From assembly GCA_913009335.1 (NCBI GenBank), contig CAJVXN010000005.1, forward strand, positions 110 to 64,109: 64,000 nucleotides of DNA, read 5' to 3'. Positions 13,524 through 23,657 of the stretch are shown one piece after another (position 1 is the stretch's first letter; each line of letters opens with the position of its first letter). The DNA is from an uncultured bacterium. Its GTDB lineage: Bacteria > Omnitrophota > Gorgyraeia > Ghiorseimicrobiales > Ghiorseimicrobiaceae. The notes below the pieces were generated by a model. It made no database searches. It was not told the origin of the DNA and saw nothing but the letters and a program-made list of their open reading frames with translations. Both the position numbers and the translations under genes were made by a program.

Positions 13524-14624
13524 ATGATCGATCTTTTCTACCCGTACGTTCCAAAAGAGGCTATAGATGCTGTAACTGATGTTCTGCGTTCACGATTTAT
13601 CGGCCAAGGCCCCAAAGTGGACCAGTTTGAAAAAGACTTTAACAAGTTCTTCCATTTAAACCACTCTGTAGCCCTAAATTCAGGCACTTCGGCTTTAGAC
13701 ACAGCATATGACCTTGTGGGCCTTAAACGCGGGGATGAGGTAATATGCACGCCATTGACGTGTACTGCTACGAACCTTCCATTATTGCGGCGCGGAGTTA
13801 AGATAATCTGGGCCGATGTTGATCCGGATACGCTTTGTATCGATTATAATGATATAAATAGGAAAATAACGGACAAAACCAAAGCAATAGTACAAGTTCA
13901 TCTTGGCGGCATTAAGGCAGGCATGGGTAAATACAATTTTTTCAAAGAAGGAGTTTTTACTCAACGTAAAAAGATTCCAATTATATCGGACGCTTGCCAG
14001 GCCCTGGGGATTTTTTCGGGCGATATGACAGCGTGTTCATTCCAAGCTATCAAACACATAACCACCGGAGATGGCGGAATGATAGTGTTAAATAATAGCA
14101 AAGATGAGAAAGATGCTAAGATGTTAAGATGGTTCGGGATTGATAGAGAAAAGAAAATCGCGAATAACTGGCAGGCATATAGAGAACGCAAGATGACGTT
14201 TGATATTGATCTTCCCGGGACTAAGCGGCATATGACAGATATCTCGGCCGCTATGGGAATTGCCGCGCTTAAGCACTATAGGGAAGTTATAAAACATAGG
14301 AAAAAGATATTTAATATATATAGAAGGAAATTATGTAACATCCCAGGTGTAATGAGGATCGTAGATGGTGAAGTCAATACATATTGGCTCGCTACATTAT
14401 TGGTTGAGAATAGAGACGGTTTTGCACGCATGCTTTTCGACGCTGATGTTGATACGAATGTAGTACAGGTCAGAAATGACATTTATCATGTATTCGGAGG
14501 TAAACGAGAAAATCTTATGGTAATGAATAGTATTGAGGAAAATTATATAAGTATCCCTCTTGGAATGCATGTTTCTGAAGAAAACGCAGAATTTATCTGC
14601 CAAAAAATAAAGGGAGGTTGGTGA
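13524..14624 (+). CDS. DegT/DnrJ/EryC1/StrS-family PLP-dependent sugar aminotransferase
   Basis: NSGTSALDTAYDLVGLKRGDEVICTPLTCTATN...; DACQALG; PLP-lysine region SFQAIKHITTGDGGMIV. Confidence 0.85.
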   Translation: MIDLFYPYVPKEAIDAVTDVLRSRFIGQGPKVDQFEKDFNKFFHLNHSVALNSGTSALDTAYDLVGLKRGDEVICTPLTCTATNLPLLRRGVKIIWADVDPDTLCIDYNDINRKITDKTKAIVQVHLGGIKAGMGKYNFFKEGVFTQRKKIPIISDACQALGIFSGDMTACSFQAIKHITTGDGGMIVLNNSKDEKDAKMLRWFGIDREKKIANNWQAYRERKMTFDIDLPGTKRHMTDISAAMGIAALKHYREVIKHRKKIFNIYRRKLCNIPGVMRIVDGEVNTYWLATLLVENRDGFARMLFDADVDTNVVQVRNDIYHVFGGKRENLMVMNSIEENYISIPLGMHVSEENAEFICQKIKGGW

Positions 14625-22424: not shown

Positions 22425-23657
22425 ATGAATAAACAAAATTTAATTCAAAATGCGATTATTTTTCAACAACCGATTTATCATTTTGCAGCGCAGCTTTTAG
22501 AAAAAAGTAAACTAAAGGCTGTGCTTGATATCGGCTGTAGTTATCCAAAAAAGTTAGAAAAATTTATTCTTCCTTTAACTTCGGATATTACAGGGATAGA
22601 TTTACCGGAAACAATTAAACTGGTAACAAGTGAAGTAAATTTTGGATCATGGATTTCTTGTGATATAGAAAAAGATAAAATAGAATTAAATAAGAAATTT
22701 GATTTAATCATTTGTTCCGATATAGTGGAACATCTTGATAATCCTGAAAAATTATTTTCTTTGATTGAAAAATGCAGTAATGACGATACTTACATTTTAA
22801 TTTCTACCCCTGACGCTACATCTACATTGAAACAATCTAATGGTAGGCCCGCGAATATTCTGCATAAAAGAGAATGGGATAGGGTTAATTTTGAGAATTA
22901 TTTAAAAAAAAGCGGATTTGATATATTGCAGAGTAAATATTATATAGAACAAAATTGCCATCCGACTTATATCTGTAATTATTTTTTATGTAAAAAATCA
23001 AATATAAGAAAAAAACATATTTTAATTACAGTGCCTAATGTACACTGGATACACCAACATGTTACGCACAGGCTTTTAATGCTTCAAAAAGATATCCGCT
23101 ATAATTTAACATTTAAACTTCCTTCACATAAACCTTATGTGAATAATTTACATCATATAGTCAATGATTTTATCTCGGGAAATTATGATTTCTGGTTGAA
23201 TATCGATGCTGATAATCCGCCTCAAGAAAATCCTCTTGATTTAATTGAATTAGATAAAGACATTATAGGGCTACCTACTCCCATTTGGCATTTTACGAAT
23301 AAAGGAAACAATGAGAGGCCTGTATACTGGAATGCTTATGATTATCTTTCAGAAAAAGACGCTTATGCTGAACATGAACCAAAAAAGGGATTACAGAAAG
23401 TTGACGCGGTAGGGACAGGTTGTATTTTAATCGCGCGCAGAGTATTTGAAAATCCTATTATGCGGCAAGGCGCATTTATGCGTAAATGGAATAAAGACGG
23501 CACAGTAGATAAAGGAAATGATATGGCTTTTGCCGAAATAGCAAGGAATCAGGGATTTAATATTTATGCTCATTATGATTATCCTTGCGACCATATGTCG
23601 GAATTATCTTTAAATGAAACAGTAAGGGCTTTTACTAATTTATTTGAGGCAAAATAA
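22425..23657 (+). CDS. bifunctional methyltransferase / GT-A-like glycosyltransferase (putative)
   Basis: N-terminal class I MT motifs VLDIGCSYP ... FDLIICSDIVEHLDNPEKLF; C-terminal DADNP and DAVGTGCILIARRVF resemble the DxD and acceptor regions of GT-A transferases. Confidence 0.55.
   Translation: MNKQNLIQNAIIFQQPIYHFAAQLLEKSKLKAVLDIGCSYPKKLEKFILPLTSDITGIDLPETIKLVTSEVNFGSWISCDIEKDKIELNKKFDLIICSDIVEHLDNPEKLFSLIEKCSNDDTYILISTPDATSTLKQSNGRPANILHKREWDRVNFENYLKKSGFDILQSKYYIEQNCHPTYICNYFLCKKSNIRKKHILITVPNVHWIHQHVTHRLLMLQKDIRYNLTFKLPSHKPYVNNLHHIVNDFISGNYDFWLNIDADNPPQENPLDLIELDKDIIGLPTPIWHFTNKGNNERPVYWNAYDYLSEKDAYAEHEPKKGLQKVDAVGTGCILIARRVFENPIMRQGAFMRKWNKDGTVDKGNDMAFAEIARNQGFNIYAHYDYPCDHMSELSLNETVRAFTNLFEAK

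Follow-up and report, generated by a model that had tools for sequence, protein, structure and literature searches.

The DNA analysed here, a window of 64,000 nucleotides (positions 110 to 64,109 of the forward strand of contig CAJVXN010000005.1, and 64 of the 67 kb of that contig), belongs to a tailed phage with the structural gene content of an RcGTA-like siphovirus. It carries a cassette of ten genes, g1 to g10 (window positions 13524-23657, + strand), which probably serves the cytoplasmic O-glycosylation and methylation of poly-Ser tracts on phage virion proteins, as a variant of the virion glycosylation of mycobacteriophages. The evidence consists of enzyme families and folds, of Ser tracts and the protein-level selection acting on them, and of genomic co-occurrence. 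The cassette is placed in virion glycosylation because its enzymes form an all-soluble set, because it is embedded in structural modules beside Ser homopolymers and because it can be swapped while the homopolymers stay. An earlier note on this DNA had proposed glycosylation of virion proteins, and the proposal gains support from the way in which the cassette travels with poly-Ser open reading frames (ORFs), from cassette swapping among close relatives and from a TibC-like domain predicted in one of the enzymes.

The ten-gene rightward cluster described in that note is present in full as ten co-directional, tightly packed ORFs over ~10 kb. Start/stop overlaps join g1-g2-g3-g4-g5, g6-g7 and g10 to the following gene, g11, and most neighbours overlap or nearly abut. 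The only sizeable gap, 167 nt between g7 and g8 (20780-20946), overlaps a 74-aa ORF (20751-20975) that has no homologue in the twelve g2-anchored loci L001-L012; L001 also has a gap between its g7 and g8 orthologues. Searches of Pfam, NCBIfam and PHROG place most of the ORFs in aminotransferase, glycosyltransferase or methyltransferase families, in agreement with the assignments first made from the translations, and Pfam thresholds were passed by the DegT enzyme, by three stand-alone methyltransferases and by the methyltransferase domain of g10. The first gene, g1 (13524..14624, +), encodes a 366-aa pyridoxal phosphate-dependent nucleotide-sugar aminotransferase of the DegT/DnrJ/EryC1 family (PF01041, E = 1e-72, 245.9 bits against a cut-off of 19.8, profile positions 5-359 of 360), and its translation shows an SFQAIK...GDGG lysine motif. 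Its best NCBIfam matches are of the PseC, LegC, ArnB and WecE types, all far below their cut-offs (PseC, the best, at 2e-54 and 184.9 bits against 423.5). No specific equivalog was reached among those tested (PseC, LegC, ArnB, WecE and DesI) and the sugar substrate is therefore not fixed by family. In 8 IMG/VR loci a g1 orthologue (54-65% identity) immediately precedes the orthologue of g2.

Three further class I S-adenosylmethionine (SAM) methyltransferases, one of them of the CmcI type, had been recognised in the translations, and all three assignments hold. Of these, g4 (17769..18362, +) matches Methyltransf_24 (3e-14) and resembles O-methyltransferase family 3, with syntenic orthologues (46-54% identity) in 8 loci; g6 (19005..19733, +) matches Methyltransf_24 at 7e-11; and g5 (18362..19057, +) belongs to the CmcI/rhamnosyl O-methyltransferase family (PF04989, RMNT_CmcI, 1.8e-56, 191.6 bits against a cut-off of 23.2). 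The NCBIfam rhamnosyl O-methyltransferase model also matches g5 (8e-44, 149.7 bits), below its equivalog cut-off of 400, and no substrate is assigned. Two genes have no annotation: g3 (17416..17772, +, 118 aa), which shares start/stop overlaps with g2 and g4, and g9 (21888..22415, +, 175 aa) match nothing in Pfam, PHROG or NCBIfam. Weak g3 homologues adjoin g2 orthologues in L008 and L064, and a g9 homologue (26% identity) lies between the g8 and g10 orthologues of L004/L005.

One alternative is that the glycosyltransferases, the aminotransferase and the methyltransferases hypermodify the DNA bases of the phage against restriction, in the manner of glycosylated hydroxymethyl-pyrimidines. This explanation was rejected as highly improbable: the window ORFs scanned include no dUMP/dCMP hydroxymethylase, 5-hydroxymethyluracil kinase or related enzyme, known DNA-glycosylation sets are far smaller than one with five sugar-type methyltransferases and five glycosyltransferase-like domains, and the tight linkage to poly-Ser ORFs would be left unexplained. 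A second possibility is a function with no protein acceptor: the product could be a methylated oligosaccharide in soluble form or a glycosylated small molecule, or the cassette could simply divert nucleotide sugars of the host as an auxiliary metabolic function. The cassette enzymes are indeed all soluble, and antibiotic sugar pathways, too, employ enzymes of the DegT and CmcI families. There are, however, no aglycone or scaffold genes, and the conserved adjacency to Ser-rich ORFs and structural genes would have no explanation, so that a free glycoside appears very unlikely.

The candidate acceptors of the glycan are a giant poly-Ser protein, g11, and the Ser tracts of tail and head-module proteins. 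Together six + strand proteins carry 818 tract residues. The tract Ser codons, 682 in number, are of all six kinds (AGT 179, TCT 147, AGC 145, TCA 140, TCC 42 and TCG 29), which argues that Ser is kept by selection on the protein and is not the product of a DNA microsatellite. Other residues in the tracts are few and are mostly one-step neighbours of Ser codons; Thr is nearly absent, with 9 Thr to 682 Ser. Leu/Glu-rich antisense ORFs ('LELLELLE') mirror the Ser tracts at 25087-25656, 45997-46335 and 32762-33292 (all on the minus strand) and were rejected as genes, being shadows of the Ser-coding strand.

Two of the tract carriers are bona fide tail proteins. The distal tail protein (DUF2460, PF09343, 5.8e-21; 41731..42423, +) ends in a 38-residue Ser tract, and a 1282-aa host-specificity-type tail protein (Phage-tail_3, PF13550, 2.7e-12; 43680..47528, +) has an internal tract of ~207 residues (nt ~45933-46553), through which the frame runs on into ~320 aa of ordinary sequence. 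In the head module a 179-aa protein encoded two genes after the major capsid protein (MCP) gene (35349..35888, +) has a C-terminal tract of 64 residues (nt ~35694-35885), and the following 104-aa protein (35899..36213, +) has one of ~44 residues; in L015 and L016 the homologues of both have C-terminal Ser tracts as well. For the 179-aa protein these measure 134-156 residues, as against 64 in the window, which indicates that tract length changes quickly. An adjacent paralogue of the 179-aa protein (34936-35286) has no Ser tail. A 332-aa virion-module protein (37519..38517, +) without a family match ends in 23 Ser-tract residues. The presence of Ser tails on virion-module proteins, pointed out in the earlier note, is thus upheld. 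The cassette had also been placed immediately upstream of these proteins, and this part does not stand: the next gene, g11, encodes no recognised virion protein, and the Ser-tailed ones lie 12-23 kb further on.

The 912-aa product of g11 (23657..26395, +), recognised from its translation, Ser tracts and repeats, contains ~440 residues of poly-Ser, in a 41-residue tract (nt ~24320-24442) and a tract of ~400 residues (nt ~25121-26311), along with about ten 44-aa repeats (TPWCG..KLYLQSGQFSSTLKTSL..GISWDGT; 132 nt at the DNA level). It ends in a conserved (D/N)T(Y/S)(D/N)Y(K/E)F motif. This motif, repeated 2-3 times, ends the giant poly-Ser proteins of the window (26311-26395), of L015 (6450-9095) and of L016 (7980-9110). 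Their N-terminal domains are unrelated, consisting of the 44-aa repeats in the window, of a duplicated '...ANTFYIDNM' domain in L015 and of almost nothing in L016. The giant poly-Ser proteins look like fibres, with a conserved anchor, a Ser stalk and a variable head. A g11 homologue (29% identity) follows the g10 orthologue in L004/L005.

A rival reading is that the cassette glycosylates only g11, or an equivalent dedicated carrier outside the virion, for example a mucin-like product released or kept within the cell, and that the Ser tails of the virion are unmodified flexible linkers. In its favour, g11 is the only Ser-rich gene that touches the cassette, its start overlapping the g10 stop in an ATGA-type overlap; in L004, L009, L064 and L065 a large poly-Ser ORF likewise comes directly after the last cassette gene; and g11 has no match to virion protein families. 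Against this, the Ser tracts of the window occur on proteins with tail-protein domains, and in a lineage of phages with genomes of ~43 kb the cassette-adjacent Ser-tract ORF lies directly after the MCP gene in the structural module, with a further Ser-tract ORF among the tail genes. Moreover g11 has neither a signal peptide nor a hydrophobic segment, and has the look of an anchored fibre. We therefore consider restriction of the glycan to such a carrier unlikely, and modification of virion Ser tracts remains the reading preferred here.

Further evidence that the cassette and poly-Ser proteins belong together came from a comparison of phage contigs. Orthologues of g2 (41-58% identity) were found in twelve IMG/VR loci, nine of which have DegT, g4 and/or g5, g6, g7 and g8 genes in the same order, g7 orthologues being syntenic in 9 loci. 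The TerL, portal and MCP of the window phage have no detectable homologue in those g2-bearing loci, and structural genes vary among cassette loci, which include the ~43-kb lineage, a 215-kb contig with a gp25-like baseplate gene and the RcGTA-like siphovirus. A same-strand Ser-tract ORF (at least 30 tract residues) lies within 0-1.8 kb in 16 of 18 non-redundant cassette loci; no Ser tracts were seen in ~166 kb of unrelated control sequence (~98 kb of distant MCP loci and 68 kb of E. coli), a small control for the base rate. In L001, of the ~43-kb lineage, the cassette stands between the MCP gene with its Ser-tailed ORF and the tail genes, and is preceded by an RmlB-like 4,6-dehydratase with STDEVFG and YSATK motifs. 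In the 215-kb contig the cassette comes after baseplate genes, and the protein encoded next has at least 1695 aa, >1000 of them Ser. In L065, a g2-bearing contig, a WbpA/B/D/E-like sugar pathway precedes the cassette and a Ser-tract ORF follows it. The sugar genes of L065 (2090-9012: NTP_transf_3, GFO_IDH_MocA, a hexapeptide acetyltransferase, DegT, two epimerase/dehydratases and a UDP-sugar dehydrogenase) resemble a 2,3-diacetamido-uronic-acid pathway, and this run suggests that cassettes differ in how their sugar is supplied. Cys and Arg regularly interrupt the Ser tracts of the ~43-kb lineage (SSSSCSSC..., SSSSSRSSSS; L001 6666-7601 and 18309-19091, and L002, L010 and L011), and a Ser tract rich in Cys is an unusual feature for a protein of cytoplasmic origin.

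The association can be followed within the MCP lineage of L001. Wherever an MCP is at least 61% identical and at least ~0.8 kb of sequence is available downstream, a Ser-tract ORF of ~300 aa comes right after the MCP gene, and DegT or g2-like genes are present in 13 of the 14 loci that have the Ser-tract ORF and at least 3 kb downstream. Five loci with MCPs of 36-40% identity have neither the Ser-tract ORF nor DegT/g2-like genes (Fisher p = 5e-4, for loci that are not phylogenetically independent). Close relatives of the window phage provide the complementary case. In three contigs with TerL 73-77% and MCP 69% identical to its own, the Ser-tailed head-module proteins are kept with much longer tails, and a nearly pure poly-Ser protein of 377-882 aa with the same C-terminal motif as g11 occupies the same slot (L015, L016). 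Their cassette differs, consisting of Methyltransf_24, Methyltransf_23, CmcI-like, GT8-like and Nucleotid_trans genes, and glycan composition would therefore differ between phages.

Outside these loci, the 50,697 GenBank phage records contain neither g2 nor g8. Both are essentially lacking from 185,579 species-representative genomes (GTDB) as well, where two scans returned a single 2.9-kb fragment of a metagenome-assembled genome (MAG), a result that gives no clue to a host or prophage. This distribution bears on the possibility that the cassette remodels a host envelope glycan (lipopolysaccharide (LPS) core, O-antigen, capsule or teichoic acid), either to exclude superinfecting phages or to avoid re-adsorption to lysed cells. 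A module borrowed from host envelope loci would not be expected to be nearly absent from so many genomes, nor to be embedded in structural modules and to track poly-Ser ORFs over different backbones. None of 12 proteins across 13077-26395 has a hydrophobic segment of transmembrane strength, and no flippase, ligase, GtrA/B-type or other membrane protein gene was found in the cassette, nor any export or polymerase gene, as the earlier note had also seen; there is no integrase or repressor among the window ORFs scanned. The enzyme families nevertheless lend the envelope some plausibility: gene clusters for O-antigen and surface glycolipids typically contain members of the GT4, DegT and CmcI families, the classic enzymes of the LPS core belong to GT9 and GT4 and are peripheral proteins without transmembrane segments, and the N-terminal domain of g2 has a family that matches LPS heptosyltransferase models oftener than the model for TibC. 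On balance an envelope target is decidedly unlikely.

The second gene, g2 (14618..17422, +), encodes a fusion of a GT9-superfamily GT-B domain (aa ~74-360), a class I methyltransferase (~420-575) and a GT4 GT-B domain (~605-934). This architecture, proposed from the translation, is backed by both profile and fold searches, and the AlphaFold2 (AF2) model shows three domains (pLDDT 81). The ORF gives 934 aa from a TTG start; the NCBI version (P0001, 100% identity over the full query) has 932 aa, from which the start is probably the ATG at 14624, overlapping the DegT stop. The C-terminal domain has a GT-B fold with its closest structural and sequence neighbours in GT4; the generic GT4 enzymes PimA and BshA match it better than GtfA or SdgB, GtfA being mid-ranking in the fold search. 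Residues 1-70 (14618-14830) contain a CxxC...HxH element whose C5, C8, H34 and H36 are invariant in 33 sequences of the family; the element is modelled at low AF2 confidence, is missing from more distant family members, and may be a small zinc ribbon.

The class of the N-terminal domain was less easily established. Among close homologues the GT9 signal is weak (Pfam GT9 matches weakly in 4 of 9), and early attempts with a PDB profile of 9 close homologues, Pfam and shallow hhalign left the class unsettled. It was settled after a full HMMER scan supplied diverse stand-alone relatives: the family comprises 1260 clusters at 50% identity, with many stand-alone proteins of ~300 aa. A profile built from 31 diverse members matches only GT9 chains in the PDB (WaaF 3.3e-08, 3tov 7.5e-05, WaaC 3e-4 and TibC 3.3e-4), the match to TibC extending over the longest stretch. 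When the family was aligned by hhalign, TibC (residues 178-388) scored 94.1% over 201 columns including the Cys region, compared with 71% for WaaC and 0.2% for the GT4 enzyme WaaG. By these profiles the domain is a member of the GT9 superfamily and not of another GT-B family.

TibC heptosylates Ser, not Thr, of its protein substrate, and its iron finger (Cys339/342/358/370) binds iron and is required for activity (PMC4358343). In g2, C318, C323, C331 and C342 are conserved at 90% or more across the 31 diverse members. In the hhalign alignment Cys342/358/370 of TibC stand opposite C323/C331/C342, and Cys339 stands opposite the less conserved C315; the spacing differs and AF2 confidence is below 50 in this region. 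The curated Aah/TibC model TIGR04414 does not match g2 and matches 3 of the 31 family members (best 5.3e-6), LPS heptosyltransferase models of NCBIfam matching up to 20 of the 31, all below curated cut-offs. As the TIGR04414 test failed, g2 was not filed as a member of the bacterial autotransporter heptosyltransferases (BAHT), and no autotransporter gene is encoded in the window. The domain may nonetheless work like TibC.

The two paralogues with an NGD motif that the earlier note had left as unknowns can now be assigned a fold. The product of g8 (20947..21867, +, 306 aa) is by fold search an unclassified GT-A-fold glycosyltransferase, and g7 (19730..20779, +, 349 aa) is its paralogue (BLASTP 8e-23, 24% identity) and a GT-A enzyme by homology. 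N139 and D141 are invariant across 41 family members, g7 keeps N-G-D in the family alignment, and in g8 the motif terminates a beta strand, in the DXD position of GT-A enzymes; the pair thus shows a Rossmann-like fold with an acidic metal-binding motif ending the central strand. The family comprises 312 proteins, none with an informative name, and sequence methods gave no Pfam match for the 41 members and no PDB profile match. The last gene, g10 (22425..23657, +), combines a methyltransferase (aa 14-170; Methyltransf_23 3e-14, NodS-like 1.6e-6 in Pfam) with an unclassified domain of ~215 aa bearing an IDAD motif. The note had read g10 as a methyltransferase fused to a GT-A-like domain. The first half of this is confirmed; the second is plausible, the C-terminal half matching only phrog_1574 (unknown function, 9e-9) and a glycosyltransferase PHROG (4e-4). 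No match was obtained for the C-terminal domain in Pfam (stand-alone homologues included), in the PDB or with GT-A profiles. In other contigs it occurs as a stand-alone protein of ~227 aa or fused to GT2, Methyltransf_24, sulfotransferase or GT1 domains. A relationship to the g8 family was rejected (hhalign 0.1%), and the label 'DUF5672', which UniRef gives to one homologue, could not be reproduced.

These assignments allow a pathway to be outlined. An NDP-4-keto-6-deoxy sugar supplied by the host would be aminated by the DegT enzyme g1; related cassettes have their own RmlB-like 4,6-dehydratase and the window cassette has none. An O-linked glycan would then be started on Ser, and the best candidate for this step is the N-terminal domain of g2, whose conserved Cys4 motif falls on the iron-finger region of TibC in the profile alignment, TibC being an enzyme that acts on Ser and not on Thr. 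Extension might be carried out by the GT4 domain of g2, by g7 and g8 and possibly by the C-terminal domain of g10, and hydroxyl or amino groups of the sugars would be methylated by five methyltransferase domains (the middle domain of g2, g4, g5, g6 and the N-terminal domain of g10). Judged by enzyme families only, the sugar would be aminated and O-methylated, as the earlier note had described it, and the outcome would be a virion bearing mucin-like, methylated glycan brushes. We would go further, with somewhat less than even confidence, and suggest that such brushes are borne by a widespread and as yet undescribed group of environmental tailed phages, on Ser stalks of tens to >1000 residues in tail, head-accessory and fibre proteins, densely O-glycosylated and methylated in the cytoplasm by a mobile cassette, with initiation by the large viral family of TibC-like GT9 enzymes (1260 clusters at 50% identity) and extension by an unclassified GT-A family. 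The same tentative proposal would have the cassette pass between unrelated backbones and be swapped among close relatives as a virion 'serotype' locus. A literature search of incomplete coverage found no earlier account of poly-Ser virion proteins tied to glycosylation cassettes.

Several observations weigh against glycosylation of virion Ser tracts or against parts of the scheme. The similarity of the g2 N-terminal domain to TibC is remote and was unstable with shallow alignments (hhalign 38.8% and 2%), the N-terminal beta-barrel or beta-hairpin thumb of TibC was not identified in g2, and more family members match LPS heptosyltransferase models than the TibC model. The cassette has no nucleotidyltransferase, dehydratase or N-acyltransferase, and the sugar pathway is incomplete and dependent on the host. 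With regard to the acceptors, the MCP has no Ser tail, g11 has no match to any virion protein family, and the 332-aa protein is the major tail (tail tube) protein by position only, from gene order alone; poly-Ser could also work as a flexible linker without any modification. The loci behind the co-occurrence counts are not independent of one another in phylogeny, and the pattern in the MCP lineage may reflect one gain or loss, and L008 has cassette genes with several kb of flank and no Ser ORF. As there is no cultured phage with g2 or g8, published proteomes offer no check.

The flanks of the cassette are as previously described, with the GroES gene (12639-12944) upstream and HNH, TerS, TerL, portal and protease-MCP fusion genes downstream. 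A tRNA-Asp gene lies at 12031-12120. The genes for TerS, TerL, portal and the 867-aa protease-MCP fusion (27340-34850) are followed by a tape-measure-sized gene and then by the DUF2460 and Phage-tail_3 tail genes (Pfam). The 867-aa ORF (32247-34850) has both prohead-protease-like and major-head-like PHROG matches (phrog_29592 at 1e-85, phrog_4523 and phrog_133) and is 69% identical in L015 and L016. The HNH endonuclease gene (26407-27045), between g11 and TerS, is missing from the same position in the relatives L015-L017, where a 101-aa ORF, 78-80% identical to window 26963-27340, directly follows the poly-Ser gene. Genes for an SNF2 helicase, AEP primase, DNA methylase, RNase H and RNA ligase are found on minus-strand arms; in the replication arm (57435-60005 and 60486-61669, both minus) the AEP primase is of the 'TOTE conflict system' Pfam type (1e-32) and there are also proteins like Pam3 gp33 and gp34. 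A scan for promoters and terminators gave counts no higher than the shuffle level.

No close GenBank phage was found by megablast among the 50,697 records, and the TerL relatives among GenBank phages are at most 26% identical. A deposited MAG sequence labelled 'Candidatus Omnitrophica' contains the same sequence (protein P0001, 100% identity); the label is probably a binning artefact and is not used here.

In the portions of the literature that our searches reached, actinobacteriophages are the only phages whose particles have been demonstrated to be glycosylated (2023); the glycans make their recognition by antibodies weaker. If the present reading is true, virion glycosylation would be common in environmental phages of sediments and waters, with a very different acceptor (homopolymeric Ser), a far richer enzyme set and variation by cassette exchange like that of bacterial O-antigens. 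This would bear on the escape of phages from non-productive adsorption, proteases, grazers and particle aggregation, and on the persistence of low-complexity Ser tracts in phage structural proteins. For annotation, hundreds of 'hypothetical' proteins would be assigned to a GT-A family and >1000 clusters to a GT9-like family of candidate protein glycosyltransferases. A compact, soluble and membrane-independent cassette might also be used for the glycoengineering of Ser-tagged proteins in E. coli.

Several known systems resemble parts of this one. Giant viruses have a similar enzyme architecture, in the GT-GT-methyltransferase fusion A064R of chlorovirus PBCV-1 and in the fibril glycan clusters of mimivirus with their sugar aminotransferase. 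They differ in having eukaryotic hosts and no poly-Ser acceptors, the chlorovirus linkage being N-linked to atypical sequons, and have no detectable sequence relationship to the cassette. The serine-rich repeat glycoprotein systems of Gram-positive bacteria (GspB/Fap1/PsrP with GtfA/GtfB) and the SD-repeat proteins of S. aureus (SdgA/SdgB) are similar in logic, the carrier here being a virus. The cluster and window ORFs scanned contain no GtfA/GtfB pair, no Asp or SecA2/Y2 genes and no LPXTG motif, and the window tracts are homopolymeric Ser in place of SASA or SD dipeptide repeats. The BAHT enzymes (TibC, AAH) share with g2 a GT-B fold of the GT9 superfamily, the conserved Cys4 motif of g2 may correspond to their metal finger after the C-lobe, and TibC hyper-glycosylates Ser of a protein in the cytoplasm, as is proposed for g2. 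Here the N-terminal domain of g2 has ~21% identity, its Cys spacing is C-x4-C-x7-C-x10-C as against C-x2-C-x15-C-x11-C in TibC, and it forms one polypeptide with a methyltransferase and a GT4 domain; its substrate would be disordered poly-Ser, whereas that of the BAHT enzymes, whose donor is ADP-heptose, is a beta-helix.

The closest parallel is with mycobacteriophages that carry an O-methyltransferase and tandem glycosyltransferases (three in Cluster O) and modify their capsid and tail tube proteins, as other papers report of the work of Freeman et al. (2023, Cell Host Microbe 31:1216). According to those papers, phage-encoded glycosyltransferases and an O-methyltransferase probably act in the cytoplasm on C-terminal parts of virion proteins. 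In both systems the cassette lies in or next to structural genes. The hydroxy-amino-acid-rich extensions expected on virion subunits of such a system are present in the window as Ser tracts on DUF2460, Phage-tail_3 and three further proteins and not on the MCP. The window phage belongs to an uncultivated, low-GC group unrelated to any GenBank phage, and its candidate acceptors, unlike those of mycobacteriophages, are Ser homopolymers of 23 to ~400 residues (>1000 in L064) on tail, head-accessory and fibre-like proteins. Its cassette is also much larger, with an aminotransferase, 5 methyltransferase and 4-5 glycosyltransferase domains, a GT9-like/methyltransferase/GT4 fusion and an unclassified GT-A family.

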